A DNA stretch of 64,000 nt from Pseudochelatococcus sp. (GTDB lineage: Bacteria; Pseudomonadota; Alphaproteobacteria; Rhizobiales; Beijerinckiaceae): NCBI RefSeq assembly GCF_050946405.1, contig NZ_JBMNUS010000013.1, forward strand, positions 71,443 to 135,442. Direction: 5' to 3'. The notes beneath the pieces were generated by a model, which saw nothing but the letters and a program-made list of their open reading frames with translations, was not told the DNA's origin and did not search any database. The position numbers and the translations under genes are program-made. Positions 13,914 through 60,407 of this stretch are shown piece by piece. Numbering within the stretch: position 1 is the first letter of the stretch; each line of letters starts with the position of its first letter.

Positions 13914-13930
13914 TGAACGGGAGAAGCTGG

Positions 13931-14284: not shown

Positions 14285-14344
14285 TACCCGCACGGCCGGG
14301 TTTGCGACCGCGCCGGCCCTGCTCAAGCCCGCGCGCAGGTCATC

Positions 14345-14377: not shown

Positions 14378-14388
14378 CGCCGCGTCGA

Positions 14389-19646: not shown

Positions 19647-20207
19647 TTGCATTATAGGGGTGCCATGGTTTCCTTGGCATGGCTCCTCCTGACCTACAAG
19701 GTCCCCCCCGATCCCGCCGCGCGGCGGGTCGCGCTCTGGCGCAAGCTGAAGGGCATGGGCGCGGTCTATCTGCAAAACGGCGTCTGCCTGCTGCCGAAGA
19801 CCGACGATCACGCCCGCCGCCTGAAGATGATCGGGAACGACGTCGCCGAAATGGGCGGCGAGGCGGTCATTCTCGAAACCGTGGCGCTGGATCGCGGGCA
19901 GGAGGAAAAGGTCGTCGCGCGATTCAGGGCCGACCGCGACGAGCAATACCGGGAGTTCCTCGGGCGCTGCGCCGATTTCGAGGCGGAAATCGCCAAGGAA
20001 ATCGCCATCGGGAAATTCACCTACGCCGAGCTGGAGGAAGAGGACACCGACCTGAAGAAGCTTCAGGGGTGGCTGGAGAAGATCAGGAAGCTCGACTTCT
20101 ACGGCGCGCTGCTGGCGGAGGAAGCCGCCTCTCGCCTGCGAGCCTGCGAGGCGGTGCTCGAAAGCTATGCGCAGCGCGTCTTCGACGCCCATGACGAGAA
20201 CCGGTAG
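19647..20207 (+). CDS. ChrB N-terminal-domain protein (chromate-resistance regulator-like)
   Basis: WLLLTYKVPPDPAARRVALWRKLKGMGAVYLQNGVCLLPK matches my recollection of the ChrB_N family. An alternative start is the Met at 19665. Confidence 0.65.
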   Translation: MHYRGAMVSLAWLLLTYKVPPDPAARRVALWRKLKGMGAVYLQNGVCLLPKTDDHARRLKMIGNDVAEMGGEAVILETVALDRGQEEKVVARFRADRDEQYREFLGRCADFEAEIAKEIAIGKFTYAELEEEDTDLKKLQGWLEKIRKLDFYGALLAEEAASRLRACEAVLESYAQRVFDAHDENR

Positions 20208-20208
20208 T

Positions 20209-45723: not shown

Positions 45724-47364
45724 ATGAAGCTTCTGGATCTGCTGCGCAAGGAAGCGGGCATCGGCGGGCCGCGCTTCATCGGTTTCGCTGCCCTGTCGGG
45801 CCTGTCCAACGCCGCCATTCTGGCCATCATCAACCTTGCCGCCAGCAATGCGAGCGACAAGGGGGAGAATTTTCACAATCTGATCCTGTTCGGTCTCGCC
45901 ATCGCCGTCTTCGTCGTCACGCAGCGCGCGCTGATGATCGAGGTCTGCGAGAAGGTGGAGTTGCTGATCGACCGCATCCGGGTGCGGCTGATCGAGCGGG
46001 CGCGGCGGGCGGAGTTTCTGGAGCTGGAGGAGATCGGCCGTTCGGAGATCTACGCCTGCCTCACCCGCGAGACGCAGATCCTGTCGCAGGCGGCGCCCAA
46101 TGTCGTGATCGGGTTGCAGTCGGCTATCCTCGTGGTGTTCACGCTGCTTTACATGGCCTTTCTGTCGCAGACGGCCTTCTGGCTGTCGGTCGGCTTCACC
46201 GTCGTCGGCGCGATGATCCATCTGTCGCGCTCGGCGGAGGTCAAGCGCGAGCTGCGCGCCGCCTTCGAATGCGAGAACGCGCTGATCGAAAGCCTCGGCG
46301 ACATGCTCGACGGCTTCAAGGAAGTGAAGATGAGCACCGGCCGCTCCGCCGACATCGCGCACAGGATCGCGGAGATTTCGGCGCGGGTCGGCCGGATGCG
46401 AATCAGGACGCAGACGCTCTACGCGACGGATTTCGTGATGTCGCAGGTCACGTTCTTCATCATGACCGGCATCATGGTGTTCGTCGTGCCGACCATCAGC
46501 GACGCCTATATCGAGGTGGTGGTGATGACGACCACCGCGAGCCTGTTCCTGATCGGCCCGGTGTCGAACGTGGTCGGCAGCCTGCCCATCTTCTCCAACG
46601 CCAACGCCGCGGCGGAGAACGTGATGGCGCTGGAGGAGCGGCTCGGGCGCGTCAACGGCGAGGTGCGGGACGCCGGCGGCGGCTTCCCCGACTTCCGGCG
46701 GATCGCGCTCCAGGGAGCGAGTTTTTCGCACCGGCCTTCCGGCGGCGACAAGGGGTTCGCGGTCGGTCCGGTCGATTTCACGGTGGAGCGGGGAAAGACG
46801 ATCTTCCTCACCGGCGGCAACGGCTCCGGCAAGACCACGTTCATCCGCCTGCTGGTGGGGCTCTATCCGCCGGGCGGCGGCGTCATCCGCGTGGACGGCG
46901 CGCCCGTCGGCCCGGCCAATGCCGCCGATTACCGCAACCTGTTCTCCGTGATCTTCTCGGACAACCATCTGTTCACGGAGCTTTACGGCATCCCCTCCAT
47001 TGATGCCGATCAGGCGGCGGAATTGTTCGCGCTGCTCGAAATGCAGCACAAATCGCAGATCGCCGGCCGTCGCTTCACCACGGTGCGGCTTTCCGGCGGA
47101 CAGCGCAAGCGGCTCGCCCTCATCGCCGCCCTGCTGGAGAAACGGCCCGTCTGCGTGTTCGACGAATGGGCGGCGGATCAGGACCCGTATTTCCGCGAGA
47201 AATTCTACAGGATTATACTTCCGCGCCTGAAGGAAAAAGGCGTCACCGTCATCGCGATTACTCACGATGACGCCTATTTTGACATGGCCGATGTCCACAT
47301 CCACATGGACAATGGGCATCTGACCGTCGTGAAGGACGAATCCGTTCTTGAGGGAACCACCTGA
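45724..47364 (+). CDS. Cyclic-peptide export ABC transporter (SyrD/PvdE-type fused permease-ATPase)
   Basis: N-terminal MKLLDLLRKEAG..FIGFAALSGLSNAAILAIINLAA, Walker A GGNGSGKTT, LSGGQRKRLAL, and Walker B VCVFDEWAADQD. Confidence 0.9.
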   Translation: MKLLDLLRKEAGIGGPRFIGFAALSGLSNAAILAIINLAASNASDKGENFHNLILFGLAIAVFVVTQRALMIEVCEKVELLIDRIRVRLIERARRAEFLELEEIGRSEIYACLTRETQILSQAAPNVVIGLQSAILVVFTLLYMAFLSQTAFWLSVGFTVVGAMIHLSRSAEVKRELRAAFECENALIESLGDMLDGFKEVKMSTGRSADIAHRIAEISARVGRMRIRTQTLYATDFVMSQVTFFIMTGIMVFVVPTISDAYIEVVVMTTTASLFLIGPVSNVVGSLPIFSNANAAAENVMALEERLGRVNGEVRDAGGGFPDFRRIALQGASFSHRPSGGDKGFAVGPVDFTVERGKTIFLTGGNGSGKTTFIRLLVGLYPPGGGVIRVDGAPVGPANAADYRNLFSVIFSDNHLFTELYGIPSIDADQAAELFALLEMQHKSQIAGRRFTTVRLSGGQRKRLALIAALLEKRPVCVFDEWAADQDPYFREKFYRIILPRLKEKGVTVIAITHDDAYFDMADVHIHMDNGHLTVVKDESVLEGTT

Positions 47365-47401: not shown

Positions 47402-50400
47402 ATGACGATCATGCTCGGGACATCGCAATGGCGTGAGGGCGGCGGAAGGTGGCTGCGCCGGTTCGCGCTCGGATCGGCCGCCGCGGCGGCGGTGACGGGA
47501 ACGGCGCTGGCCGCCGATGTTTCGCAGGTGGGGCCGGTCTTGCAGGGGTTTCTCGATGCGACGGCCTCGCAAGGCACGCTTCAGGGGGTCGCGATCGGCG
47601 TCGACCTGCCGGGTGGCGAAGGGAGCTGGTTCGGCGGGGGCGGCTATCGCGACATCGCCCGCACCGAGCCGCTCGGCGCCGACCTGCAATTCCGCATCGG
47701 CAGCGCGTCGAAGACCTTCACCGGCACGGCGGTGTTGCAGCAGGTGGATCAGGGGCTGATCGGGCTCGGCGATTCGATCGACAAATGGGTGCCCGATCTC
47801 AACGTGCCCGGCGGCGACCGGATCACCGTCGAGAACCTGCTCAGCATGACGAGCGGCATTCCCGACTATCTGGGCGCGGAGTCGATCCATAGCCCCGGTA
47901 ATACGATATTGCAGGAATGGGCCAACTTCCACGGCCCGGCCGGTTCCCACGGCAACGCCGACTACACGCCCGAGCAGCTCGTGGGCGCGGTGGTCGACAG
48001 TCTCGGGGCCAGCTTCGGGCCGGTCGGCGAGATGTTCTATTCCAACACCAATTTCGCCCTGCTCGGCATCATCGCGCAACGCGCGTCGTGCCTCGGAGCC
48101 TCCGGTTGCCGGACGATCGACGAAATGGTCAACGGCATCGCCGCTTCCATGGGGCTTGCCGACACGGTCTTTCCCGCTTCGTCCGCCTTCACGGCGCCTT
48201 ATGCGGAAACGGCGCAGGTCGTCATCGGCGACGCTTCCTATTACGGCGTTCCGCCCGGCAGCAGCTTCGACATGACCTTCCTCGATCCGCGCGTGCCGTG
48301 GGCGGCGGGCGCGGTGTTGTCGACGCCGGCGGATGAACTGAAATGGGTGCGCCAGCTCGCGACCAACAGCGACGGGCTGCTGTCGGCGCAGACGCAGGCC
48401 GAGCGTGTCGGCGTGGCGGAGCCCGGCGAGGTGAGCGGCGTGCCGGTGTTCTACGGCCTCGCCCTCTATGCCATGCCCGGCGTGGGGAGCGGCACCTATC
48501 TGACCGGCCACAGCGGGCTGATCGGCGGCGACACGGCGTCGCTGTTCTACAATCCGGCGCTGGACGTGGCCTATGCCGTCAATTTTCTCGGCTATCAGGC
48601 CAATGCATTGCCATGGTTTCCGCTCTACGGCGCCTCCGACGCCCTGGGCCGTTACGTTTATGCGGGAAGGGAAGGGGGCAATTACAGCTCCGTCATGATC
48701 CTGTGGGCGCTCGACCGCAACGTCACGCTGGCGCTCACCGCGCAGGGCTCGTGCAGCTACGGGGCCGGCCCGCAGGGCGCGGGCGGCGACAGGACCTGTG
48801 CGGGCGACAGCGTGCGCACGACGCCGATCGCCGTCACTGATGGCACGCTGACCATCGCCCCGTCCCACCTGACCATGGGCAATTACTACATCGATCCCGT
48901 CACCGGCGCCGTTTCGCTGGCGCAGGTGGCGCGGCCGAGCCTTGCGATGTTCGGCAGCCATTCCGCCGCGGTGGCGTTGCAGGGCGGGGCCTCGCTCGTG
49001 CTGCCGCAAGGGGCGACGGCCGAGCTGTGGGGCACGAACTCCGCCACCGTCAGCATGACCGGCGCGGACAATGCCGCGCACATCGGCGGCACGCTTCTCA
49101 CCTACGGCGTGGATTCGGTGGCGGTGCGGATTATGGGCGACCGCAACCGGGTGAACGTGCTGCCGACCGGCGCTGTGGTCGGCGCCAGCGCGCCCGCCAT
49201 CGCCATGAGCGGCCGCGACAACGCCGCCGTCATCGGCGGCAGCGTGACGACCTACGGCCACGGCATCGAGCGGATCGCCATCGCGGGCGAAGGCGGCGGC
49301 AATCGCGTGGAGGTGGAGCCCACCGGCTATGTCGGCGGCGACATCGCGCTCGCCGGCGACGGCAACCGGGTGAGGGTCGACGGCATCGTCTCGGGCCATG
49401 TGCCGATGGCGGGAGGCGACGCGGTGCTGAGCGGCGAGGGCGTGATCACCGGCGTCGTGGGCGGCGGCGGCACGGTGGCGCCGGGCAATGGCATCGGCAC
49501 GCTTACCGTCGGCGGCTATGCCGGGCGCGATACCCGGCTGATGATCGAGACCGGGCCGGGCGGCGCGAGCGACCTGCTCGCGGTGGCTGGCCCCGCTTCC
49601 CTGACCGGCGGCAGCCTGCATGTCACGCCGCCGCCGGCGGCGGCGAGCGGCATCTACAATGTCCTCTCCGCCGGCGCGGTGGAAGGGGCGTTCGCCGCCG
49701 CCACCACCGGCGGCCGCGTGGGCCTTGGCGTGCAATACACGCCGACGGCGGTCAATGTCGCGGCGGTCAACCCCTTCCTGTTCGATGCGGCGGTGCGCAC
49801 CGGCGCGGCCGATACCCTGCGCAATCTCGACCTGTTCGAGGAGCGGGCGGCGGCGTTCGCCGCTTCAGCTACTTCCGCCGCGCCGGCCGGTGCGGCACGT
49901 GGGCCTGCCGCCGGCGCGCAGGCCGAAAACCTGAAGGAATGGTTCTCGCGGCGCGGCGCGTCGGCGGCGGGTTCCCGCGCGGCGGGGGCGGCGGTCTGGG
50001 CTTCGGCCTACGGCGCCTTCGACCGCCATGCCGCGGATGGGCCGGTGCCGACCATCGCGTCGGAGGGCGGCGGCGTCGCGGTGGGCGCCGATGCCGAACC
50101 CCTGCCCGGCCTGCTTGTGGGCGCGATGGGCGCCTACAGCCGCACCCAGGCGACGACGCCGGCGAATCCGGGAATGAAGTTCTCCTCCGACGCCTACAAG
50201 GCCGGCGTCTACGGCGCTTACGAGGCCGGGCGCGTGCTGTTCAGCGCCTCGCTGCTCGCCGGCCGGGGCGACGACACCACCACGCGCGCGGTGGAATCGG
50301 GAGCGCTCGCCGGTGTGGCGCAGGGCAGCTTCGACGATTTCCGCCTCGCCGCCCGCGTGGGGGCGCGCGCGACCTTCGATGTGGGCGCGGGCGTGCGCCT

Positions 50401-50836
50401 GACGCCGCGCGCCGCCGTCACGCTGCTGCGGATCGAGCAGGACGCCCATCGCGAGATCGGCGGCATTCCGGGCTACGGCTTCGGCATCGGCATCGGGGCA
50501 AGCACGTATGAACAGGTGCGGTCCGAGGCATCCCTTGCGGTTGCGAAGACTTTCGACGTTTCCCTGGGCGGCTGGAGCGGCCGGCTCACGGGCGAGCTTC
50601 GCGCCGGCCTCGCGCGCGACATCGTGCTGAAGAGCGCGAACGGATGGGTCGACGTGCCCGGTTTCAGCCCCGTCGTCACCGGCGGCTTCAAGCGGAACGC
50701 CTGGGTGATGCCGGTCGGCGGCCGGCTGGAGCTGGCGGCGAGCGACTCGCTCTCCGTCTTCGCCGCCTACGATGGCGCGTTCTCCAGCCTCGGTGGCGTC
50801 AATACGGTGCGCGGCGGCTTACACTGGCGTTTCTGA
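47402..50836 (+). CDS. Autotransporter with a beta-lactamase-fold (S12 / class C / family VIII esterase-like) serine hydrolase passenger
   Basis: Signal peptide ...AAAVTGTALAADV. SxxK = SASK (Ser at 47702), YSN (48038), HSG (48509). Passenger repeats such as GNGIGTLTVGGYAG lie near 49490. The C-terminal beta-barrel (about 49990-50836) ends in GGLHWRF. Confidence 0.85.
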   Translation: MTIMLGTSQWREGGGRWLRRFALGSAAAAAVTGTALAADVSQVGPVLQGFLDATASQGTLQGVAIGVDLPGGEGSWFGGGGYRDIARTEPLGADLQFRIGSASKTFTGTAVLQQVDQGLIGLGDSIDKWVPDLNVPGGDRITVENLLSMTSGIPDYLGAESIHSPGNTILQEWANFHGPAGSHGNADYTPEQLVGAVVDSLGASFGPVGEMFYSNTNFALLGIIAQRASCLGASGCRTIDEMVNGIAASMGLADTVFPASSAFTAPYAETAQVVIGDASYYGVPPGSSFDMTFLDPRVPWAAGAVLSTPADELKWVRQLATNSDGLLSAQTQAERVGVAEPGEVSGVPVFYGLALYAMPGVGSGTYLTGHSGLIGGDTASLFYNPALDVAYAVNFLGYQANALPWFPLYGASDALGRYVYAGREGGNYSSVMILWALDRNVTLALTAQGSCSYGAGPQGAGGDRTCAGDSVRTTPIAVTDGTLTIAPSHLTMGNYYIDPVTGAVSLAQVARPSLAMFGSHSAAVALQGGASLVLPQGATAELWGTNSATVSMTGADNAAHIGGTLLTYGVDSVAVRIMGDRNRVNVLPTGAVVGASAPAIAMSGRDNAAVIGGSVTTYGHGIERIAIAGEGGGNRVEVEPTGYVGGDIALAGDGNRVRVDGIVSGHVPMAGGDAVLSGEGVITGVVGGGGTVAPGNGIGTLTVGGYAGRDTRLMIETGPGGASDLLAVAGPASLTGGSLHVTPPPAAASGIYNVLSAGAVEGAFAAATTGGRVGLGVQYTPTAVNVAAVNPFLFDAAVRTGAADTLRNLDLFEERAAAFAASATSAAPAGAARGPAAGAQAENLKEWFSRRGASAAGSRAAGAAVWASAYGAFDRHAADGPVPTIASEGGGVAVGADAEPLPGLLVGAMGAYSRTQATTPANPGMKFSSDAYKAGVYGAYEAGRVLFSASLLAGRGDDTTTRAVESGALAGVAQGSFDDFRLAARVGARATFDVGAGVRLTPRAAVTLLRIEQDAHREIGGIPGYGFGIGIGASTYEQVRSEASLAVAKTFDVSLGGWSGRLTGELRAGLARDIVLKSANGWVDVPGFSPVVTGGFKRNAWVMPVGGRLELAASDSLSVFAAYDGAFSSLGGVNTVRGGLHWRF

Positions 50837-51586
50837 CCGGGTGTTTCCGAGCCGCATATGCGCGAGGACTTGCGCGTGAAACTCGTCCGCGTTCTCGCGC
50901 AGGAAGAAGTGCCCGCCCGCGATCGTCACCAGCTCGAAACCATCGCCCGCGACCGCCGCCCAGCCGGCGATCTCGCGCGGCGAGACGAGCGGATCGTCCG
51001 CGCCGGCGAAGGCGACGACCGGACAGGTCAGGCGCTCGACCGGAAAGGGCAGGGACGTTTCCGCCAGGGCGAAATCCGCCCTGAGCGTGCGCTCGAACAA
51101 TTCTCGGAACTCCGCGTTGCGCACGATTTCCTCCGGCGTGCCGTTGTAGGAGGACAGCCGGCGCCAGAATTCTTCGGAAGGCAGGTCATGCAGCGGCGGC
51201 ATGCGGGGCGGGGCGCCGGGAGGGCGATGCGCGGCGACCATGACGCAGGCGGGCGCGGGAAGACCGAGACGATCCGCCGCCCGCGCGAGACAATAGGCGA
51301 CGCGCGCGCCAAGCGAGTAGCCGAGCAGGACGTAGGGACGATCGAGCAGCGGCGTGAGCGCCTCGATGAGGCGCGCCAGCAGGAGGGGCATCGAGGCAAT
51401 GGGGGTCTCCGAAAAGCGGCTTTCGCGGCCGGGGAACTGCGCGGGCAGGACTTCGAGCCGCTCATGAGCGCGCGCATGCGCCCGCAATCCGGCGAAGGCG
51501 GATACGCCGCCACCCGCGAAGGGCAGACAGATCAGCCGCATGGCAGGGCGACCCGTACCCCCGGCGGCGGGAAACCAACGGCGCAT
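50819..51586 (-). CDS. Type II thioesterase (GrsT/TEII family alpha/beta hydrolase)
   Basis: RLICLPFAGGG, GYSLGARVAYCLA (GxSxG), and a C-terminal GGHFFL. The start is uncertain (ORF extends to 51703; the Met at 51586 gives a typical length of about 255 aa). Confidence 0.85.
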   Translation of the reverse strand: MRRWFPAAGGTGRPAMRLICLPFAGGGVSAFAGLRAHARAHERLEVLPAQFPGRESRFSETPIASMPLLLARLIEALTPLLDRPYVLLGYSLGARVAYCLARAADRLGLPAPACVMVAAHRPPGAPPRMPPLHDLPSEEFWRRLSSYNGTPEEIVRNAEFRELFERTLRADFALAETSLPFPVERLTCPVVAFAGADDPLVSPREIAGWAAVAGDGFELVTIAGGHFFLRENADEFHAQVLAHMRLGNTRSETPV

Positions 51587-51882
51587 GGCCGCAGCAGAGA
51601 CGGACGGTTCCGCTCCTTCTTCGCCAGCAGCGGTAATGTCTCTCTCCATTGCCATCATGTCTTCGGGGTATCGGATCGTGCGCATTATTATAGCAGGCGA
51701 CAAAGGTATAGCTCTCGACTCCGATGGTCAACTATGATAGGTGTAGGATATTACTTTCATGAAATAGAAAGTGTTCTGGACAGTGTGCGCCGGTTGCGTC
51801 GGGGCGGGGCCTGAAAGCGGTGGGCGGTGGACTGTCACGGTTGCGAATTCCATCTCGTTTCATACTCCCGGAGGAGAGCATC

Positions 51883-52512
51883 ATGGTTGCCGAGGCGCAG
51901 AACAGTGTCGGGGAAGAAGTCGCGGCAGCCGAGCCTGCCAGCCGCCAGAAGGCCGAGCAGATCATTCGCAAATATACGCTGTGGGCGACGGGCGCGGGCC
52001 TCATTCCGGTTCCCGTGCTGGACGCCGTCGGCGTGGCGGGCGTGCAATATGCGCTGGTCAACGATCTGGCGTCGCTCTACGGCGTGCCGTTCTCGAAGGA
52101 GCGCGTGCGCGCGCTCGTCGCCGGCCTGGTCGGCGGCGGCGTTCCGGCGCTGCTGACCACCGGCGGGCTCGCCAGCGCGGCGAAGGCCGTTCCGTTCGTG
52201 GGCTCGCTGCTCGGCGCGGCGGTGTTTCCCGCGCTTTCGGCCGCCGCGACCGTGGCGCTCGGCCGGGTGTTCACGCAGCACTTCGAGGCCGGCGGCACGC
52301 TGCTTGACTTCGACGCCGAGAAGACGCGCGCTTTCTTCGCGGAAGAGTTCGAGAACGCCCGCAAGGAAGTGGGCGAGACGCTGGCAAGCGCGGGTGTCGG
52401 CGTGGCCGGAAAAGCCAAGGCGGCAGATGCCCCGGCTGCTCCCGTTCCTGCCGCCGCTGCTCCTGCTTCGGCGGCGAAGAAGGAAACGGCTGCCGCGCCC
52501 GCCGCCGTGTGA
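51883..52512 (+). CDS. DUF697-family membrane-associated protein
   Basis: IIRKYTLWATGAGLIPVPVLDAVGVAGVQYALVNDLASLYGVPFSKE. The ATG at 51883 is preceded by ggaggagag. The C-terminal tail is Ala/Pro-rich. Confidence 0.65.
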   Translation: MVAEAQNSVGEEVAAAEPASRQKAEQIIRKYTLWATGAGLIPVPVLDAVGVAGVQYALVNDLASLYGVPFSKERVRALVAGLVGGGVPALLTTGGLASAAKAVPFVGSLLGAAVFPALSAAATVALGRVFTQHFEAGGTLLDFDAEKTRAFFAEEFENARKEVGETLASAGVGVAGKAKAADAPAAPVPAAAAPASAAKKETAAAPAAV

Positions 52513-52625
52513 GGCTGCGAGCGCGTCGGCATCGTGCCGGCGCGCCTTGCCGGAATGGGCGCCTTCCGATCGTAACGGGTGGGAGACACGCTGACGCCGG
52601 GGCGGGTTGACGAGAAAGAACGCGA

Positions 52626-52817
52626 ATGGCTGTCGTCATTTACTTTATGCTGTGCGTGCTTGTCGGGATACTCGGCCTCGGTTATTGGGGCGGCTTTCTT
52701 CTGTACTTCATTCTCGCGCTCGCCATGACGCCGCTTGTCGCCTTGCTGGTGCTCATCATCGTGGGATCGAGCGAGGGGCGGCGCGGCTTCGCGCGGTTCA
52801 GGAAGCCGGAGCCCTGA
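52626..52817 (+). CDS. Hypothetical small membrane protein (63 aa, two predicted TM helices)
   Basis: ORF MAVVIYFMLCVLVGILGLGYWGGFLLYFILALAMTPLVALLVLIIVGSSEGRRG.. is strongly hydrophobic. No family was recognised. Confidence 0.35.
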   Translation: MAVVIYFMLCVLVGILGLGYWGGFLLYFILALAMTPLVALLVLIIVGSSEGRRGFARFRKPEP

Positions 52818-52914
52818 CGATATCCCTGCCCGCATGGCCGGGCGCGGCCGGGTTGCGCCGCGCATTCGATGAACGTTCATGGCCGGCCTTGCCGCCGGTG
52901 CGTCACGGAAGACG

Positions 52915-54318
52915 ATGACACAACAAGATCTTTTCACCCCGGATGCCGGTGTCGCGCCTGCGCGGCACTGGCGCCGGTTTCGTCTGCCGCGCCGCCGCGA
53001 TCTTATGCTGTGCGTGCTTGTCGTGCTGCTTTGCGTGACGTTTCTCGCGCCCTACATGGTCGTCAATATTCCGGCCGGGTCCGCCGGCGTGATATGGCGT
53101 CGCTTCGGCGGAGGCACCGATACGGAGATGGTGCTGCACGAGGGCATCGCGCTGATCTGGCCGTGGAACCGCGTGCAGCTCTATGACCTGCGTCTCCAGA
53201 GCGAAAGCATCGATATCGTCGCGATTTCCCAGGACGGGCTGAACATCACCATCGGCCTGACCTTCCGCTGGTTCGTCAACCCCAAGTTCGTCGGCTGGTT
53301 GCACAAGATCGCGGGCCCCCAATACATGCAAAGAATTCTCCTGCCGGAACTGAACTCATCGACAAGACAGGAGTTTTCGAAGTTCAGGATGGTGGATTAT
53401 TATGGCCCGAACCGGGAAGAAATGCTTTCCCGCGTTTACAGCACCGTCGTCGATCGCGGATTTCCCAACTTCATTTTCGCGCCGAAGGATCTCGATACGG
53501 TCAATGCCGGTCTCAAGGTCAACGACGGCCTGATCATGCTGACCGATGTCCTGATTCGCGAAGTGGTGATGCCGCCCCGCGTCGTTGCCGCGGTGCAGGC
53601 GAAAATCGAGCAGCAGCAACTCGTTCAGGAAATGCAGCACCGGGTGGAGCGCGAGCGCTTCGAGAACCAGCGCAAGGAAATCGAGGCGGAAGGGATTCGC
53701 AAGTTTCAGCAGATCGTGCAGACGGGGATTTCCGAAGCCTATCTCAAGTGGCGCGGCATCGAGGCGACGGTCCTGCTGGCGAACTCGCCCAATGCCAAGA
53801 CGATCGTTCTCGGCGGCAACGGCGGCCTGCCTCTCATTCTGAACACCGGCGACGCGGGGACGCCGGCGGCGGTTGCGGCCGCGCCGTCCGCGCCTCCCGC
53901 CCCCGAGGGCAAGAACGGCGCGGCCAGATATCTCGGTTCCGTCGACATCTCGCGGCCGGACATGCGCAATCGGGAATCGAAGGGATTGGGCCTCGGCGCG
54001 ACGCTGCATCCGGCGCAGGGCGCGTGGTCCCGCGATGTCGCCGCCATCGGGCCTACCGCGACCTCCGGCATCGCCGGTTCCGCGAACGCGGCCGGCCCTG
54101 ACGCGAGCCGGGTTCCCGGCGTTTCTCCCGCCGGCCCCGGCAATGTGGAGGCCGGCGCGCTGTCGATGCCCGCGCCGCGTCCGCCGGGCGTGCTGCCGAT
54201 CATGTCGCCGTTCATCGGCGTCGGCGGCACGGTTTCGTTCTGGCAGAAGCTTTCCAGCCTCTTCGGTATCGCGGACCCGCCCGGCGGGCAGGCCGAGACC
54301 GGGCCGCCCACGCCCTGA
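52915..54318 (+). CDS. SPFH/band-7 (prohibitin/flotillin-like) membrane protein with a C-terminal Pro/Ala/Gly-rich tail of about 160 aa
   Basis: The N-terminal TM segment LMLCVLVVLLCVTFLAPYMVV is followed by an SPFH core: GSAGVIWRRFGGGTDTEMVLHEGIALIWPWNRVQLYDLRLQSESIDIVAISQDGLNITIGLTFRW, then a coiled region QAKIEQQQLVQEMQHRVERERFENQRKEIEAEGIRKFQ. Confidence 0.75.
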   Translation: MTQQDLFTPDAGVAPARHWRRFRLPRRRDLMLCVLVVLLCVTFLAPYMVVNIPAGSAGVIWRRFGGGTDTEMVLHEGIALIWPWNRVQLYDLRLQSESIDIVAISQDGLNITIGLTFRWFVNPKFVGWLHKIAGPQYMQRILLPELNSSTRQEFSKFRMVDYYGPNREEMLSRVYSTVVDRGFPNFIFAPKDLDTVNAGLKVNDGLIMLTDVLIREVVMPPRVVAAVQAKIEQQQLVQEMQHRVERERFENQRKEIEAEGIRKFQQIVQTGISEAYLKWRGIEATVLLANSPNAKTIVLGGNGGLPLILNTGDAGTPAAVAAAPSAPPAPEGKNGAARYLGSVDISRPDMRNRESKGLGLGATLHPAQGAWSRDVAAIGPTATSGIAGSANAAGPDASRVPGVSPAGPGNVEAGALSMPAPRPPGVLPIMSPFIGVGGTVSFWQKLSSLFGIADPPGGQAETGPPTP

Positions 54319-54331
54319 TCCGGCCGGGCAC

Positions 54332-57300
54332 ATGTCCGCGGCGGGCCGGCAGCGGGCAGGACGTCACCAGCAACTTCCAAACCGTAATGGCGAAACCGTG
54401 CTCTCCCGCGACAACATCAAGGACATCTATCCGCTGACGCCTTTTCAGGAAGGGGTCGTCTTTCACGATCTCATGGAGCGCGAGGCGGCGCACGAGGGCC
54501 AGCGCGCCTACTTTCAGCAGATGAGCTTCACCGTGCGCGGGCCGCTGGATATCGCGGCCTTCCGGCGCGCCTGGCAATTCCTGGTGGACCGGCATGACGT
54601 GCTGCGCACCGTCTTCCGGCCGACAGGCGCGGAGCGGCCGTTGCAAATCGTGCTGAAGGCGCGTGAACTCGTGCCGGATGTCGTCGACTGCCGCGCTCTC
54701 GGCCCGGATGCCGCCGGCGCGACCTGCGAGCGCTACGAGGCGGAGCAGCGGCAGCGCCCGTTCGATCTGCGGCGCGACCTGCTGGTGCGGCTCGGCCTGC
54801 TGCTGATCGCCCCGGAGGAGACCCGCGTCGTGTTCGGCTTCCATCATGTGCTGATGGACGGCTGGTGCATCGGCATCTTGCAGGACGACCTGACGCGCGC
54901 CTATCAGGCTTTTACGCGCGGCGATGCGCCGCGTCTGCCCGCCGCCGTTCAGTTCGGCGGTTTCGTCAAGGCGAGCGAGCGGCGGCGCACGGCGCGGGCG
55001 CTGGATTTCTGGCGCGATTATCTCGCGGATTACGAGACCGCCGTGGCGCTCCCCGGCCGCCGCCCCGTCGCCCTCGACGGGCCGCGGGACAGCCTCACGC
55101 ACGAGGCGGCGCTGGGCGAGGCGCTGACGGCGCAACTCGATGCGCGGGCGCGCGCGCTCGGGGTGACGCCGGGCACGCTGGCGCAGGCGCTCTGGGGCGT
55201 GCTGCTGGCGAAGATGGAGAATCGGCGGGATGTCGTCTTCGGCACCATGGCCTCGACGCGCCTGCCCGATCTTCCGGGCGGCGAGGCCGTGCTGGGGCCG
55301 TGCATCGGCATGCTGCCGCTGCGCATCCGCTACGCGCCATCCGAAACCTTCGCGGAACTCGTGGCGCAGGTCCATGCGCAACGGCCCGGCTGGCTCGGGC
55401 ACGTGCATTGCGCGCTGGCCGACATCCAGCAGGCGAGCGCGCCGCGCGGCGCGTTGATCGGACATTATTTCGTCTATGAGAACTACCCGCTCGACGCGCG
55501 TTTCCGGGGCGAGGCGCAGGTGCTCGCGCCCGGCGTGACGATCCATGACGTGCGGATGTTCCAGACCGGCAATTACGATTTCGGGGCGCTCATGCTGCCG
55601 GGCGAAAGCGCGCGCCTCGTGTTGACCTTCAACAGCCGGGCGGTCGATCCGGCGGCCGTGGCGCGCATCGGGCGCTGGTTCGTGCGGCTGGCGCGGCAGG
55701 CCGCCGGGGAGCCGGACTGCGCCATCGATGCCATGACCCTGCTCGATGACGAAGAGGCGGCGCGAATCGAGGCGTGGGGCCGGGGGGCGGAGCCCGGCGT
55801 GCTTGCGCCCGACATCGCGGCGCTGCGGCGCGATGTCGTGGCCCGTAGGGGCGAGGCCCCGGCTGTGCGGGCCGGCGGGCGCACGCTCTCGCACGCGGAA
55901 CTGGAAGCGCGGGCGCGCGGGCTCGCGGCCTGGTTTCGCCGCGCGCACGGGATCGGGCCGGGCGATCCGGTCGCGCTGCATCTGCCTGCCGGAGAGGGGC
56001 TGGTGACGGCGATGCTGGCCTGCCTGCTGCTCGGCGCGCCGTTCGTGCCGCTCGACCCCGGCAATCCGGCGCTGCGCACGGCCCATATCCTGAAGGACAG
56101 CGGGGCGCGGCTCGTGCTGGCGCAGGGCGCGCTGCCGGAAGAGGCGGCGGCCGGCGTGCCGGTGGCGCAATCGCCGGCCGATCCCGGCGCGCTCGACGGG
56201 GAAGCGCTGCCGGCCGTCGACGCCGACGCGACGGCCTACATCATCTATACTTCCGGCACGACGGGCGTGCCGAAGGGGGTGCGCGTCGGCCAGTCCGCGC
56301 TCATCAATTATGTCGGCTGGTTCGGCACGCTGTCCGGCGCCGGGCCTGACATGCGCACGGCGCTCGTGACCTCGGCGGCCTTCGATCTCGGCTATACCGG
56401 CCTGTTCGGCGCGCTGCTCGGCGGCGGCTGCGTGTCGCTTCCCGACGAGGACGAGCGCCGCGATCCGGCCCATGTGCTCGCCCTGCTGGCCGACCACGGC
56501 ATCATGGTGCTCAAGACGACGCCCTCCTATCTGTCGATGCTCCTCGCGACGCCGGGCGGGGAGGCGCGTCTTGCCGGGGCGGGCGCGCTGCGCCTGCTGC
56601 TGCTCGGCGGCGAGCCGCAGAATTTCGCCGAGCTGCGGCGTCTGCGGCAACGGCTTCCGGGCCTGCGCATCTACAATCATTACGGGCCGACCGAGGCCAC
56701 CATCGGCTGCGCCGCCGGCCCGCTCGACGATCTGGCGGATCGCGGCGAGGGGCCGCAACGTCTCGGCCGGCCGATCGCGGGCGTGCGCCTTTTCGTGTGT
56801 GACGCCGCGCTGCGGCCCGTGCCGCCCGGCGTGCCGGGCGAACTGCTCGTGGCCGGGCGCGGCCTCGCGCAGGGATATGTGAACGCCTCGCCCGCCGACG
56901 CCGCCCGCTTCGCCGTCCTGCCATGGTGCGGCGGGCTGCGCGTCTACCGCACCGGCGACCGCGTGCGCTGGGCCGATGACGGCACGCTGGAGTTTCTCGG
57001 GCGCGTCGACGATCAGGTGAAGGTGCGCGGCTATCGCGTCTCGCTGAAGGAGGTCGAGGCGGCGCTGACGGCGCTTGAGTGCGTGCGTGACGCGGCGGTG
57101 GTGACGGATGCGCGCGGCGGCGCGACCGAGCTTGTCGCCTATGTCGTCCCGGAAGGGGAAAGGCCGGAAGGGGAAACGACGCCGGCCGCCATCCGCGCCG
57201 CTCTGGCGCGGCGTCTGCCGCCGCCGATGATACCGGCGCGCTTCATCGCCGTGTCGCGCTTCCCGCTGACCGCCAACGGCAAGACCGACCGCAAGGCGCT

Positions 57301-58387
57301 GACCGAACACCGGCGGCCGCAGGCTCCCGCGCCCGGAGCGCCGGAGGCGGGAAACGAGACGGAGGAGAAACTGCGCGCGATCTGGCGCGAGGTGCTGTTT
57401 CTCGACCATGTGGGCCTCGACGACGATTTCTTCGCGCTCGGCGGCCACAGCCTGAAGGCGATCCTCGTCGCCTCGAAGGCGCGGGCGGTGTTCGAACGCC
57501 CGCTCACGCTGCGCAGCCTGTTCGATCACCCCACCGTGCGCCGACTCGCCGTGCATATTGTCGGCGGCGCCACGCCCACGCCTGTCGGCGGCGATCGGGT
57601 GCTGCCGCTGCGCGCGGGATCGTCCGACGCGCCGCTCGCCGTCTTTTTCCCGCCGGCGCTCGGCACGTCGACCCCCTACCGCGATCTGGTCGAGCCTCTC
57701 GCGGGCGATGTCGCCTGCATCGGGATGCAGGCGCCGGGTTTCGACCGCGACGAGCCGTTCGCGGAAAATGTGGCGGACTGCGCCGGACATTTCGTGCGGG
57801 CCTTGCGGCCGCTGATCGGACAGGGGCGGAGACTTCGACTGGTCGGCTGGTCCATGGGTGCGCATTTCGCACTGGAGACGGCGTTGCAGTTGGAGGCGGA
57901 AAACGGAGGGCATCGGAGCCCGGCGCTCGAACTGATCCTGCTGGACAGCGCCCCGCCGGCGGCGGACGACGGAACGAACGATGCGTCGGACGGCTTGCCG
58001 GGCTTCGCGGCGTTACGCACGCGCCCTTATTGGGGCCGCGTGCTGGCGATCATGGATGCGATGCCCCCGGCCGATCTCGCGCGCATCGAGCGTCTCGCCC
58101 GGCACAATCATGCCGCGGTGCGGCGACATCGCTTCACCGGCGTCGTTCACAGCCCCGTCACCTGCCTGGAGGCCGCCGATGCGCTTCCCCGCGCGGGCAT
58201 GGAAGGCTTCCGCCGATTCGCGGCCGGGCGATTCGCCGTGCATGAGGTCGGTGGCGATCATTACTCGATGTTCCATCCGCCGCATCTGAACACGGTGCTG
58301 TCGTGGCTTGAACAACTGCTGACGGCCAGCGGCAGCGGCGCGGGCGCGACACCGGCCGCCAGCGCACCGGGATCGCTGACGGCATAG
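54332..58387 (+). CDS. NRPS termination module: C-A-PCP-TE
   Basis: This is the in-frame part of ORF 53873..58387. The ATG at 54332 lies 13 nt after the SPFH stop codon. An alternative start is the GTG at 54398, immediately before LSRDNIKDIYPLTPFQEGVVFH. Confidence 0.95.
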   Translation: MSAAGRQRAGRHQQLPNRNGETVLSRDNIKDIYPLTPFQEGVVFHDLMEREAAHEGQRAYFQQMSFTVRGPLDIAAFRRAWQFLVDRHDVLRTVFRPTGAERPLQIVLKARELVPDVVDCRALGPDAAGATCERYEAEQRQRPFDLRRDLLVRLGLLLIAPEETRVVFGFHHVLMDGWCIGILQDDLTRAYQAFTRGDAPRLPAAVQFGGFVKASERRRTARALDFWRDYLADYETAVALPGRRPVALDGPRDSLTHEAALGEALTAQLDARARALGVTPGTLAQALWGVLLAKMENRRDVVFGTMASTRLPDLPGGEAVLGPCIGMLPLRIRYAPSETFAELVAQVHAQRPGWLGHVHCALADIQQASAPRGALIGHYFVYENYPLDARFRGEAQVLAPGVTIHDVRMFQTGNYDFGALMLPGESARLVLTFNSRAVDPAAVARIGRWFVRLARQAAGEPDCAIDAMTLLDDEEAARIEAWGRGAEPGVLAPDIAALRRDVVARRGEAPAVRAGGRTLSHAELEARARGLAAWFRRAHGIGPGDPVALHLPAGEGLVTAMLACLLLGAPFVPLDPGNPALRTAHILKDSGARLVLAQGALPEEAAAGVPVAQSPADPGALDGEALPAVDADATAYIIYTSGTTGVPKGVRVGQSALINYVGWFGTLSGAGPDMRTALVTSAAFDLGYTGLFGALLGGGCVSLPDEDERRDPAHVLALLADHGIMVLKTTPSYLSMLLATPGGEARLAGAGALRLLLLGGEPQNFAELRRLRQRLPGLRIYNHYGPTEATIGCAAGPLDDLADRGEGPQRLGRPIAGVRLFVCDAALRPVPPGVPGELLVAGRGLAQGYVNASPADAARFAVLPWCGGLRVYRTGDRVRWADDGTLEFLGRVDDQVKVRGYRVSLKEVEAALTALECVRDAAVVTDARGGATELVAYVVPEGERPEGETTPAAIRAALARRLPPPMIPARFIAVSRFPLTANGKTDRKALTEHRRPQAPAPGAPEAGNETEEKLRAIWREVLFLDHVGLDDDFFALGGHSLKAILVASKARAVFERPLTLRSLFDHPTVRRLAVHIVGGATPTPVGGDRVLPLRAGSSDAPLAVFFPPALGTSTPYRDLVEPLAGDVACIGMQAPGFDRDEPFAENVADCAGHFVRALRPLIGQGRRLRLVGWSMGAHFALETALQLEAENGGHRSPALELILLDSAPPAADDGTNDASDGLPGFAALRTRPYWGRVLAIMDAMPPADLARIERLARHNHAAVRRHRFTGVVHSPVTCLEAADALPRAGMEGFRRFAAGRFAVHEVGGDHYSMFHPPHLNTVLSWLEQLLTASGSGAGATPAASAPGSLTA
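54400..55720 (+). other. Domain: condensation C6 (follows an E domain in the assembly order)
   Basis: IKDIYPLTPFQEGVVFH; HHVLMDGWC at 54842. Confidence 0.85.
55790..57310 (+). other. Domain: adenylation A5 (by-eye code DLTKLGHIGK, 9/10 to the canonical Asp code DLTKVGHIGK)
   Basis: YIIYTSGTTGVPKG, AFDLGYTG, VLKTTPSY, NHYGPTEATIGCA, YRTGDRV, GRVDDQVKVRGYRVSLKEVE, NGKTDRKAL. Confidence 0.85.
57149..57178 (+). repeat. In-frame 15-bp tandem duplication (PEGER PEGET) inside A5
   Basis: ccggaaggggaaagg / ccggaaggggaaacg, read directly. Confidence 0.85.
57350..57560 (+). other. Domain: PCP5
   Basis: FFALGGHSLKA; Ser codon at 57449..57451. Confidence 0.9.
57590..58387 (+). other. Domain: thioesterase (TE)
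   Basis: GWSMG with Ser at 57851..57853, and a C-terminal His context VGGDHYSMF. Confidence 0.85.
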
Positions 58388-59166
58388 GCGGTGAGGCGCG
58401 GCCGCTCGCCGGCGCGCAGGAGCATGGTGAGCGCGAAGGCGTGGCCCGAAGCGAGCAGACCGCTCTGGACGTGCCAGACGCCCGCGCGGCGCAGGTCTTC
58501 GTCGAGATGGGCGAAGCCGAGACGGGTGAAGCCGAGACTGGCGAAGGTTGGCTGATCGAGCGAGAAACCGGCGCAGGTCAGCGGGCGGGAAAGGCCCTGG
58601 CCAAGGCCCTTCACCACGCTTTCCTTCAGCGTCCACAGCCTGAAGAAGCGCTCCGCCATCGGTGTCGGGCAGTCGCCGTGAGCGGAATCCGGCTGGATGG
58701 GAGAGCGTTCCAGCGCGGCAAGGCCGGCCAGTTCCGCCGCCGTGCAGAAGCTTTGCGCCAGTTCGATCGTCGCCGTCGCCGGCGTCACGCGCTCGACATC
58801 GACGCCGGTCTCGCGGCCCTCGCACAACGCGACCGCCACGCAGCCCGCCGTGTGCGACAGGCTGAAGCGCACGTCAGGCATCCCCGGCGCGCGCACGATG
58901 CACGGCTTGCCGAGGGGCGAGGCGGTAAAGCGCCATGCCGCCGGCCCCGTTCCGGCGATATGGCGGGACAGCGCCCCCCGCAGCAGGCCGTGCGCGGCGA
59001 CGAATGTCTCGCGATCGCGCTCGAAACGGAAACGGCCCGCCCGCGCGGTCTCCTGCGCGTCGAGCCACGCTGCCGCCCGCCCGCCGGCGATCCCGGCCGG
59101 AGCCGCGATGTAAACCGATACCGGAATGTCCCGTATGGACGCCGGACTGTCGTGCATTATATCCAT
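58261..59166 (-). CDS. 4'-phosphopantetheinyl transferase (Sfp/EntD type)
   Basis: RFRFERDRETFVAAHGLLR, FSLSHTAGCVAVA, GVDVE, FRLWTLKESVVKGLG. Its 3' end overlaps the NRPS TE-coding region. Confidence 0.85.
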   Translation of the reverse strand: MDIMHDSPASIRDIPVSVYIAAPAGIAGGRAAAWLDAQETARAGRFRFERDRETFVAAHGLLRGALSRHIAGTGPAAWRFTASPLGKPCIVRAPGMPDVRFSLSHTAGCVAVALCEGRETGVDVERVTPATATIELAQSFCTAAELAGLAALERSPIQPDSAHGDCPTPMAERFFRLWTLKESVVKGLGQGLSRPLTCAGFSLDQPTFASLGFTRLGFAHLDEDLRRAGVWHVQSGLLASGHAFALTMLLRAGERPRLTAYAVSDPGALAAGVAPAPLPLAVSSCSSHDSTVFRCGGWNIE

Positions 59167-59348
59167 ACCCGTTATCGCTTCGACGGAAAAACCACCGGAA
59201 AACCCTTATGCCGGCGGATGGCGGGACGCATCCTATCATGCGCGGCCGGGCGGGCGCGACGGCGCAGGAATGCTCTTGACCGACGCAAGCGTTGACGCGA
59301 CGTTATCGCCGATGGTCGCCGCAATCTATGGCGCGGTGCGGTGATAGT

Positions 59349-60407
59349 ATGACATTTATGCGGAGCGGTCGGATGAAAATATGGTCGGGCTTTCCGGCGC
59401 TCGCGGCAGCGGCTTTCATGACGGGCTTGCCGGCAAATCCGCCGGCATGGGGAGCGGATGCGGCGCCGTTCGACCAGTCGCCCTATGAGCGGCCGGCGTC
59501 GCTCGTCGAGGTGGGCGATGGGCAACGGCTCAATCTCGTCTGCCGGGGCGAAGGTTTTCCGACGGTTCTTCTCGAAGCGGGTTTCGGCGAAAGCGCGGTG
59601 ACGTGGCGCGACGTTCAGCCGGAAATCGCCAAAGTGACGCGCGTCTGCGCCTATGACCGGGCCGGGCTCGGTTTCAGCGATCCCGCCAGGGCGGCGCAGG
59701 ATGTGGCGGGCATGGCCGCGCGGCTGCGGGCTCTTGTCGACGCGGGCGGTATCGGCCGCCCGTTCGTTTTGGTGGCGCATTCGATGGGCGGGTTGATCGC
59801 GGCCCGGTATGCCGACGAGAATCCGCGCGATCTGGCGGGGCTGGTGCTCGTCGATCCCGCCGTGGCGCATCAGGAGCGGCACATGGCCGCCGTCACCCGC
59901 TCCTATTTCATCGCGAACGCGCAGCAACGCGCCGTGATTCTCGCCTGTCTGGATGCCGCGAAAGCCGGCGATATGACGCCGGGCAGTTCTCTGCCGGCCG
60001 AATGCGGCAACCCGACACCCGGTGCCGGCCCGGTGCTGGCGGCGGCGGAAAGCGCGCGGATGAAGAAGGTTTCCTATTGGGAGGCGCTGCTTTCCGAACA
60101 TGAAAACATGTTCTCCATGCAGGAGGACAGCTCGACCGTGGATGACATCCAGCTCACCGGCTCCACCCGGCGATATGGAACCTTGCCGCTGATCGTTCTC
60201 ACCGCCGGGAATGCGTTGCCCGATATGCCGGAGGCCGAAAAAGACCCCGCCAATACATTGTGGATGAAGCTGCATGACGAACTGGCGGCGCGCTCCGACC
60301 GGGGCGTGAATCGCCTGGCCCCGCAATCGGGGCATTATATCCAGAACGACGCGCCGCAGGAGGTGATCGCGGCCGTGCTCGAAGTCGTCACCGCCACGCG
60401 GCGGTGA
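59349..60407 (+). CDS. Secreted alpha/beta-fold hydrolase
   Basis: Signal-like N-terminus MKIWSGFPALAAAAFMTGLPANPPAWG, then LLEAGFGES and the nucleophile elbow VAHSMGG. The start could be 59349 or 59373. Confidence 0.7.
   Translation: MTFMRSGRMKIWSGFPALAAAAFMTGLPANPPAWGADAAPFDQSPYERPASLVEVGDGQRLNLVCRGEGFPTVLLEAGFGESAVTWRDVQPEIAKVTRVCAYDRAGLGFSDPARAAQDVAGMAARLRALVDAGGIGRPFVLVAHSMGGLIAARYADENPRDLAGLVLVDPAVAHQERHMAAVTRSYFIANAQQRAVILACLDAAKAGDMTPGSSLPAECGNPTPGAGPVLAAAESARMKKVSYWEALLSEHENMFSMQEDSSTVDDIQLTGSTRRYGTLPLIVLTAGNALPDMPEAEKDPANTLWMKLHDELAARSDRGVNRLAPQSGHYIQNDAPQEVIAAVLEVVTATRR

Follow-up and report, generated by a model that had tools for sequence, protein, structure and literature searches.

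Why do three genes for membrane proteins stand directly in front of the gene for the last module of a peptide assembly line? The question is raised by a 64,000-nucleotide (nt) stretch of Pseudochelatococcus sp. DNA (assembly GCF_050946405.1, contig NZ_JBMNUS010000013.1, positions 71,443 to 135,442 of the forward strand; hereafter the window), in which genes for a DUF697 protein, a 63-amino-acid (aa) microprotein and an SPFH protein, together called the trio here, precede a non-ribosomal peptide synthetase (NRPS) termination module with the domain order C-A-PCP-TE. A sequence-only reading of this DNA had suggested that the trio could tether the release module, an exporter or a hydrolase at the membrane, that it could protect the producer membrane from its own lipopeptide, or that it could be an unrelated insertion that split the cluster. 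In our analysis the trio recurs across genomes as a conserved cassette, and its most constant neighbour is a cyclic-peptide-type ATP-binding cassette (ABC) exporter gene. As such, we find it probable, if only by a little, that the trio and this exporter form an HflK/C-like cage or microdomain module for export and/or self-protection that is co-expressed with the termination module in the window.

Recurrence of the trio and its linkage to an ABC exporter

The genome scan covered one genome per species in 185,579 species-representative genomes and gave 548 relatives of the SPFH protein, of which the best 80 loci were surveyed by tblastn with the window proteins. Flanks of 10 kb were fetched while the clusters exceed 35 kb, so the counts behind "no ABC" and "no NRPS" are lower bounds. 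Relatives of the SPFH protein number in the hundreds, the nearest named ones being 45-55% identical. The best matches among species representatives, a set that does not include the organism of the window, are 51-53% identical (Methylobacterium and a Rhizobiales metagenome-assembled genome, MAG), and proteins with 99-100% identity (P0001 and P0121) were found only in Logan read assemblies. A megablast of 45-60 kb of the window against plasmids returned just short NRPS fragments.

Recurrence of DUF697 and SPFH genes beside homologous NRPS genes, which the sequence-only reading had singled out as informative, is readily found. In each of the first six relatives inspected, a DUF697 gene, an open reading frame (ORF) of 59-70 aa and a Band_7 (SPFH) gene lie by NRPS or polyketide synthase (PKS) genes, and the window order is kept in four of the six. 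Methylobacterium frigidaeris (L001) has the window layout with a gene for a BBP2_2 outer-membrane barrel between the SPFH and NRPS genes, and Xanthobacter (L003) is arranged in the same way. The trio stands directly 5' of a C-A-PCP-TE gene in Azospirillum sp. TSH100 (L004) and in the gammaproteobacterium Endothiovibrio (L006), Hyphomicrobium (L005) has a PKS/HMGS-type cluster with a type II thioesterase (TEII) and a phosphopantetheinyl transferase (PPTase), and a metagenome contig (L007) has an ABC gene between the small ORF and the SPFH gene. Across the survey, a DUF697 gene lies on the same strand and within 4.5 kb 5' of the SPFH gene in 72 of the 80 loci; among the other eight, two contigs end early, three have DUF697 on the other strand and three hold a stand-alone SPFH gene. 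NRPS or PKS genes occur within 10 kb in 38 of the 80. A search started from the DUF697 side returns the same partner set in more distant lineages; L088 holds Band_7, small ORF and DUF697 genes with two ABC genes and a PKS, and the Bacteroidota locus L089 holds an ABC gene, Band_7, two DUF697 genes, the small ORF, a PPTase, a TEII and a DUF697-OmpA fusion. A TEII gene adjoins the trio in L001, L003, L005, L009-L011, L019, L021-L023, L038 and L089.

In a metagenome search with the NRPS3 C domain, most matches were generic C domains at about 30% identity and served as a negative control: none of 41 generic metagenomic NRPS loci (C-domain anchored, at most 36% identity) carried an SPFH gene, a DUF697 gene or the small ORF. 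Reasonably close C-domain relatives in metagenomes were limited to three, all on short contigs. In L117 (55% C-domain identity) the trio adjoins the NRPS gene and is divergent from it, while a TEII gene (L090) or a beta-lactamase gene (L092) lies directly 5' of the NRPS gene with no trio between in the other two. Because several genera show the trio beside homologues of the NRPS and accessory genes and generic NRPS loci do not have it, gene context indicates a conserved cassette that is functionally tied to the cluster, and not an unrelated insertion.

A neighbour-joining tree of SPFH cores places the window with L003, L009, L010, L004, L012 and L006 in one clade with the order SPFH > (BBP2_2) > C-A-PCP-TE. 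The PKS-type loci of Hyphomicrobium and Azorhizobium form a separate clade, loci with the order ABC > SPFH, mostly with NRPS genes, fall into several clades, and a large Azospirillum-centred clade has no NRPS gene within 10 kb. The NRPS-less locus type is conserved across Azospirillum species and their relatives (L013-L045, again for 10 kb), and it is illustrated by L014, where Pfam matches at 3087-14133 give, in order, an IcmF-related_N P-loop protein (1077 aa), DUF697, the small ORF, SBP_bac_3, ABC, SPFH, ABC, a NAD_binding_4 reductase and a porin. Azospirillum agricola has both types, the NRPS-less locus L040 and the NRPS-type locus L012.

The ABC gene is the partner that persists through most of these arrangements. 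In the window its product scores 313.8 bits against TIGR01194 ("cyclic peptide export ABC transporter", cutoff 286.2), matches Pfam ABC_membrane and ABC_tran, and is also similar to PRK10522. A full-length homologue is present in 64 of the 80 loci, between the small ORF and the SPFH gene in 28, directly downstream in 30 and elsewhere in six, and the NRPS-less Azospirillum-type clade keeps its ABC partners as two ABC half-transporters. In 31 loci the ABC gene is directly 5' of the SPFH gene, and the stop and start codons overlap in 23 of these (15 with a 4-nt and eight with a 1-nt overlap), a junction of the kind typical of translational coupling; choosing the SPFH start nearest to the ABC stop biases the distances to short values, but exact -4 and -1 overlaps are unlikely artefacts. 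The trio thus appears to have its closest tie to the cyclic-peptide-type ABC exporter and a looser one to NRPS/PKS clusters overall, while a tie to the termination-module gene is apparent only within one clade.

Properties of the three proteins

The SPFH protein matches PF01145 (Band_7) over residues 63-259 of its 479-aa form (E 7.3e-17, 62.4 bits vs a cutoff of 23.6). The start at ATG 52915, which gives 467 aa, is more likely than that at 52879, since this is also the length of P0001, a database protein of 99% identity. In the AlphaFold2 (AF2) model, the predicted local distance difference test (pLDDT) score exceeds 90 over residues 30-270. A transmembrane (TM) helix (17-48) is followed by the SPFH alpha/beta domain (49-218, strands 49-121), a 49-residue coiled-coil helix (221-269), a further helix (274-290), a conserved GGxGGLPLILN strand and then a disordered tail. 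The GGxGGLPLILN segment is invariant or nearly so in 73 SPFH sequences, and with the coiled coil it represents the cage-building elements in what is a monomer model. Foldseek ranked PHB2 and PHB1 on top (E 4.6e-19 to 1e-15), with HflC/K at 1e-12 to 1e-14, erlin and stomatin behind the prohibitins, and flotillin at rank 33 or lower (about 2e-9); a profile search against PDB sequences gave PHB2 at 6e-18 and HflC at 2e-10. Sequence and model together indicate a Band_7 superfamily member that is nearest to the prohibitin/HflC group. The sequence-only reading had described a flotillin-like protein with an N-terminal TM anchor and a long tail. The Band_7 domain, the anchor and the tail, at 157 aa, stand, while the nearest relatives are prohibitin-1/2 and HflC/K. 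We rejected an assignment to the flotillins, as Pfam gives Band_7 only and no Flot-domain match, the Foldseek rank is low, the predicted orientation is opposite and no NfeD gene is present. No FtsH/AAA-protease gene was found among the scanned window ORFs or the called genes of L001-L007, L088 and L089, though the SPFH protein may interact with the product of a distant ftsH gene.

HflK/C and prohibitin build cages on the non-cytoplasmic face of the membrane, with their SPFH domains toward the periplasm or the intermembrane space, and a similar placement is predicted here. The window protein has a single N-terminal TM segment, the hydrophobic core of which (Kyte-Doolittle 2.74 over residues 32-50) is preceded by RHWRRFRLPRRR; seven lysine or arginine residues lie before the segment and two after it. 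Family means are 4.05 before the segment and 0.82 after, and more of these residues lie before it in 63 of 73 members. From the positive-inside rule and this family-wide bias, we infer that the N-terminus is cytoplasmic and that the SPFH domain and the tail are periplasmic. In the window protein, Ala (17%), Gly (16%) and Pro (15%) are abundant in the tail, which has a pLDDT of about 40 that rises to 69 at a short amphipathic helix, FWQKLSSLFG (residues 440-449). Such long low-complexity tails are a trait of the family, and none is shorter than 85 aa in the 70 members that have the conserved core (median 101, maximum 204). The GSVDIS motif of the window tail corresponds to G[ST]xDx[ST], found in 16 of 70 family members.

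The DUF697 protein (ATG 51883) matches PF05128 at E 1.5e-10 (41.4 bits vs a cutoff of 27.7), and its gene has a GGAGGAG Shine-Dalgarno sequence 8 nt 5' of the start. It is all-helical, with hydrophobic helices at about 33-60, 78-100 and 105-127, then a charged helix and an Ala/Pro-rich C-terminus, in agreement with the sequence-only description of a DUF697 protein with an Ala/Pro tail. The model has six helices (pLDDT 76.5), a structure search returned no significant relative among solved structures, and its sequence relatives carry the NCBI name "YcjF family protein". DUF697 paralogues are also seen beside different partners. A second DUF697 gene in L007 has a CbiA/ParA-like ATPase gene directly 5' of it (3236-4464), and a Bacteroidota contig (L089, 12497-13738) encodes a DUF697-DUF748-OmpA fusion with an OmpA-like peptidoglycan-binding domain, which hints at pairing with NTPases and at a reach to the peptidoglycan layer.

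The 63-aa ORF, noted earlier as a double-TM protein, indeed has two hydrophobic segments (residues 1-19 and 28-46), followed by a basic C-terminus. No Pfam or NCBIfam match was obtained for it. Matches by tblastn (E<1e-5) were found in 51 related loci, always between the DUF697 gene and the SPFH or ABC gene, with the conserved motif GxRGGFxLYF...TP; from these matches and this motif, the ORF is judged to be a real gene.

The surrounding cluster and its transcription

The trio belongs to a hybrid cluster of two plus-strand arrays and heads the second of them (Table 1). Where the sequence-only reading saw three same-strand genes between the TEII gene and the C-A-PCP-TE gene, the trio does lie wholly on the plus strand, but the TEII gene is on the minus strand and divergent. 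In the divergent region the guanine-plus-cytosine (GC) content falls to 45.7% over 51640-51790, vs about 70% in the surroundings, and this is the sole AT-rich, promoter-like stretch of the second array. The three internal gaps of the DUF697 > small ORF > SPFH > NRPS unit have 68-71% GC, the SPFH-NRPS gap 68.4%. As described before, only 13 nt separate the SPFH stop codon (TGA, 54316-54318) from an in-frame ATG of the NRPS gene; this gap holds no terminator-like site, and its fold is not more stable than those of shuffled sequences (z +0.72). A scan for sigma-70-like sites, which is uninformative for a 70% GC, alphaproteobacterium-like genome, returned none in 50700-55000. The same-strand order from the trio to the NRPS gene is kept in at least seven other genomes, with C-A-PCP-TE homologues 3' of the trio in L001, L003, L004, L006, L009, L010 and L012. 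Because the gaps are tight, GC-rich and terminator-free, an AT-rich stretch lies just 5' of DUF697 and the same-strand order is conserved, it is plausible that the four genes form a single transcription unit with a promoter 5' of DUF697, and the co-transcription proposed by the sequence-only reading is upheld at that strength.

Just past the DUF697 stop codon, an 11-bp GC-rich hairpin, GCGCGUCGGCA-UCG-UGCCGGCGCGC, is found on the plus strand at 52521-52545. It was rejected as a terminator, as it has no U-tract and the region folds no better than shuffled sequences (z -0.40). The hairpin may act in mRNA stability or processing, or have no function.

Table 1. Features of the biosynthetic cluster, in window positions.
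Feature	Position	Strand	Basis or remark
MFS transporter	20167-21429		
First synthetase, 4904 aa	21640-36354	+	starts FAAL-ACP-KS-AT-ACP-aminotransferase-C
AsnB-like glutamine-dependent asparagine synthase	36358-38247	+	between the two large synthetase genes
Second NRPS	~38250-45683		
ABC half-transporter (TMD-NBD, 546 aa)	45724-47364	+	TIGR01194, cyclic-peptide type
Beta-lactamase-fold protein fused to autotransporter beta-domain, 1144 aa	47402-50836	+	
TEII	50819-51703	-	PF00975, E 1.3e-30; diverges from DUF697
TEII/DUF697 divergent intergenic region	51640-51882	.	likely promoter region, from low GC
DUF697/YcjF-family inner-membrane protein, 209 aa	51883-52512	+	PF05128
63-aa membrane microprotein	52626-52817	+	hydropathy and tblastn
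Prohibitin/HflC-like SPFH protein, 467 aa	52915-54318	+	PF01145; alternative start 52879
SPFH-protein TM anchor, hydrophobic core	53008-53064	+	Kyte-Doolittle
SPFH-protein Pro/Ala/Gly-rich tail, 157 aa	53845-54315	+	composition, AF2 pLDDT
SPFH-NRPS gap	54319-54397	+	13 nt to ATG 54332, 79 nt to alternative GTG 54398
NRPS termination module C-A-PCP-TE	54332-58387	+	Pfam Condensation, AMP-binding, AMP-binding_C, PP-binding, Thioesterase
PPTase	58261-59166	-	
Alpha/beta hydrolase	59292-60407		

The loading region of the first synthetase (FAAL-ACP-KS-AT-ACP-aminotransferase) is of the iturin/mycosubtilin style and therefore predicts that the product is a beta-amino-fatty-acid lipopeptide. In the same protein Pfam gives four C and four PCP domains and just two AMP-binding stretches, one of which is the FAAL by this reading of the loading region, and some modules may therefore be without an A domain of their own. 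Homologues of the AsnB-like protein are also found in trio-carrying clusters of the Hyphomicrobium type (L005, L019, L021-L023 and L038).

The fusion protein encoded at 47402-50836 joins a serine hydrolase domain of the beta-lactamase/penicillin-binding-protein (PBP) fold to a C-terminal autotransporter beta-domain and is presumably displayed on the surface. Related clusters carry the beta-lactamase-fold gene in fused form (L001, L004 and L012) or stand-alone (L003, L006, L009-L011 and Pseudoalteromonas), and the hydrolase could be a lipopeptide-maturing or a self-resistance peptidase or esterase. At the other end of the cluster, the 3' ends of the C-A-PCP-TE and PPTase genes overlap convergently by 127 nt (58261-58387), an overlap conserved at about 115 nt in Xanthobacter (L003, 16796-16910). 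The plus-strand ORF of 828 aa at 14032-16518 has its family match, to an HTH_3 plus Cupin_2 regulator, confined to the last ~180 residues. In this high-GC sequence the ORF is probably over-extended; a similar HTH-cupin gene was called at 221 aa in L005.

A proposed export module, its rivals and its meaning

The explanation that we favour begins with the SPFH protein, which would oligomerise into a periplasm-facing cage or microdomain, by analogy with HflK/C round FtsH and prohibitin round the m-AAA protease. This cage would enclose a TIGR01194-type ABC exporter, with the DUF697 protein and the microprotein as membrane subunits, and the partner in the window would be the exporter encoded at 45724-47364 and not the cytoplasmic release module. 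It is possible that the module aids export of the predicted lipopeptide, that it confines the lipopeptide away from the inner membrane of the producer, or both. In the lineage of the window, the cassette heads a putative operon that ends in C-A-PCP-TE, so that its synthesis would accompany expression of the last assembly step and be coupled to release. Help to an exporter and protection of the producer membrane, both raised by the sequence-only reading, are now its better-supported options. Genes of the YcjF family show a link to psp operons, and in E. coli membrane damage induces them (PMC3041696, PMC8125068); it is this loose association that lends the proposed module an envelope-protection flavour.

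Several points weigh against this explanation. The ABC gene of the window is not adjacent to the trio but lies 4.5 kb 5' of it, in the preceding operon, and the window-type relatives L009-L012 have no ABC homologue within 10 kb, although their clusters extend past the fetched flanks. The constant downstream neighbour in the window-type clade is the termination-module gene, even in the flipped arrangement of L117, and a specific link to that enzyme is possible. The survey takes in the best 80 of 548 relatives, among which Azospirillum (about 30 species) and Pseudoalteromonas (eight) predominate, and three relatives of the SPFH protein (L059, L062 and L066) stand alone in unrelated contexts with no partners. 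Beyond family identity and synteny, the argument for topology, contact and function is one of guilt by association, and computation does not separate an aid to export from self-protection.

The trio could instead work as an envelope-stress or self-resistance device of its own, independent of the exporter and resembling the Psp/Lia systems or flotillin microdomains, that stabilises or repairs the producer membrane. A lipopeptide product would suit such a device, as would the position of the window trio away from the ABC gene, the general role of SPFH proteins in organising membrane domains and the psp association of YcjF-family genes. Yet this account leaves unexplained both the near-universal, often overlapping ABC-SPFH junction and the loci that have two ABC half-transporters and no biosynthetic cluster. 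It also overlaps heavily with the proposed export module, in a manner that sequence analysis cannot separate, and on balance we regard it as doubtful. Unlikely too, and somewhat more so, is a role as a tether, in which the trio would serve as a membrane scaffold, hold the termination module or even the entire assembly line at the inner membrane and couple release to export. Within the clade of the window the case for a tether is easily seen: the trio is immediately 5' of C-A-PCP-TE and probably co-transcribed with it, the same adjacency recurs in Methylobacterium, Xanthobacter, a Rhizobiales MAG, two Azospirillum species and Endothiovibrio, all in one SPFH clade, and L117 retains it despite the inverted orientation, while the N-terminal segment of the DUF697 protein is predicted to be cytoplasmic and could dock a partner. 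However, with the SPFH domain and tail predicted to be periplasmic, about 30 cytoplasmic residues are left for such contacts, and outside this clade the SPFH gene adjoins the ABC exporter gene and not an NRPS gene. The trio is also present in PKS/HMGS-type clusters without C-A-PCP-TE nearby and in NRPS-less loci, and L090 and L092 (41-48% C-domain identity, both on short contigs) have no trio 5' of the NRPS gene. Tethering of the release module, one of the first suggestions made for this locus, is consequently not favoured, and the divergent trio of L117 is a further point in that direction.

An unrelated insertion with no role in the pathway is scarcely credible. Composition offers the one sign of it, as the small ORF has 60% and the SPFH gene 65% GC vs 72-73% for the NRPS genes, but the ABC gene of the cluster itself is equally low (63.5%) and the trio has a GC content at third codon positions of 0.80-0.81, close to the 0.86-0.88 of its neighbours. 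Synteny extends across alphaproteobacteria, gammaproteobacteria and Bacteroidota at 35-55% protein identity, identities that exclude recent transfer of one mobile element, and the control NRPS loci are free of the trio. The sequence-only reading had kept an insertion as an alternative, which these observations speak against.

A wider version of the proposed export module would reach across the envelope. The SPFH cage would sit over the ABC exporter, and bundled tails of 85-204 aa per subunit would span the periplasm to an outer-membrane beta-barrel, so that the SPFH module would replace the HlyD-type membrane-fusion protein (MFP) of classical tripartite pumps in a trans-envelope apparatus for lipopeptide secretion. 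A BBP2_2 (PF10082) outer-membrane beta-barrel gene lies exactly between the SPFH and C-A-PCP-TE genes in L001 (11406-12728), L003 (11602-12882), L009, L010 and L012, loci that represent Methylobacterium, Xanthobacter, a Rhizobiales MAG and Azospirillum agricola. Neither L004 nor L006 has this gene, nor does the window (best tblastn E 0.23), and no HlyD/MFP or TolC-family Pfam match was found among the ORFs scanned across the cluster (20-60 kb). The barrel would be BBP2_2 in Methylobacterium, Xanthobacter and Azospirillum agricola, while in the window its place would be taken by the autotransporter-anchored beta-lactamase-fold hydrolase. This extension fits the placement of BBP2_2 between the SPFH and NRPS genes, the DUF697-OmpA fusion of L089 and the lack of an HlyD-type gene among those ORFs, but we consider it improbable as a whole. 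If true, it would give the DUF697/YcjF family its first function.

Comparison with known SPFH systems shows where the cassette departs from them. With HflK/HflC-FtsH of E. coli and with prohibitin-1/2 and the m-AAA protease of mitochondria, the SPFH protein shares a single N-terminal TM anchor with a cytoplasmic N-terminus (predicted here), the SPFH domain, the coiled coil and the conserved C-terminal strand, and the concept of an SPFH cage on the non-cytoplasmic face round a membrane ATPase (the cage being our proposal). Unlike those systems, the cassette has no FtsH/AAA gene nearby, and its recurrent ATPase partner is an ABC half-transporter. It has one SPFH gene in place of the HflK/C and PHB1/2 pairs, an additional Pro/Ala/Gly tail that is disordered and 85-204 aa long, DUF697 and a microprotein as obligate partners, and a setting in secondary-metabolite clusters. 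SPFH-NfeD operons (QmcA-YbbJ, FloT/YuaG-YuaF, FloA/YqfA-YqeZ and archaeal stomatin-NfeD) are likewise conserved and pair an SPFH gene with that of a small membrane partner, and the QmcA-YbbJ complex (8z5g) is among the Foldseek matches (E 8e-10). However, the 63-aa partner gives no NfeD/OB-fold (PF01957) match and is too short for an OB fold, and QmcA and the flotillins face the cytoplasm whereas the window protein is predicted to be periplasmic. Stomatin with ASIC, GLUT1 or AQP1 also pairs an SPFH oligomer with a transporter or channel client, and an aquaporin-1-stomatin structure (9zd2) is among the Foldseek matches; that system is eukaryotic, faces the cytoplasm and has no operon logic, and the resemblance is conceptual only.

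Similar comparisons can be made for the partners. To our knowledge, no SPFH, DUF697 or microprotein partners have been described for the characterised cyclic-peptide exporters of the SyrD/PvdE/YojI type; the window ABC protein resembles these exporters in exceeding the TIGR01194 cutoff and in its location inside an NRPS cluster, but such partners are the rule here. Tripartite ABC efflux systems (MacAB-TolC and PvdRT-OpmQ) differ in that the cluster ORFs gave no HlyD/MFP or TolC match and the relatives have BBP2_2 instead. The E. coli YcjX-YcjF pair, which is sigma-32/psp-linked and tied to envelope stress (PMC3041696, PMC8125068), also has a YcjF-family DUF697 membrane protein, and in both settings DUF697 tends to adjoin a P-loop NTPase. 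In contrast to that pair, no YcjX (DUF463) gene occurs in the window or the inspected loci, where the NTPases near the trio are ABC nucleotide-binding domains, the IcmF-related_N protein of L014 and the CbiA/ParA-like protein of L007, and the window DUF697 protein is shorter (209 aa) than E. coli YcjF and has an Ala/Pro tail.

A full-text literature search returned no work on DUF697 in gene clusters, nothing relevant on flotillins and NRPS localisation, one genome comparison for Band 7 proteins with NRPS and ABC genes, and none on SPFH/HflC proteins with NRPS clusters, apart from a passing remark on the ABC-to-SPFH arrangement in the 95-kb NRPS/PKS cluster of Thalassobaculum sp. OXR-137, which goes no further on function than "may interact" (PMC12016528). 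That arrangement is the ABC-to-SPFH order seen in 28 of the surveyed loci, and the remark concerns one genome, with no mention of DUF697 or the microprotein and no comparison (PMC12016528). The trio thus appears to be an uncharacterised cassette that departs from known SPFH systems, with an ABC exporter, a DUF697 protein and a microprotein in place of a protease, NfeD and YcjX.

These relationships bear on how producers safely export membrane-active compounds. A recurrent cassette for export or self-protection may serve as a practical marker for clusters of membrane-active lipopeptides, and it is a likely requirement for their heterologous expression and yield. DUF697/YcjF, a widespread family of unknown function, gains a concrete functional setting. 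The current understanding is that prohibitin, HflK/C, stomatin and flotillin form membrane cages, and few bacterial clients of such cages are known, chiefly FtsH and NfeD. Genetic coupling of a conserved SPFH clade to ABC transporters for peptide export would widen this list by a new client class and offer a tractable bacterial model.

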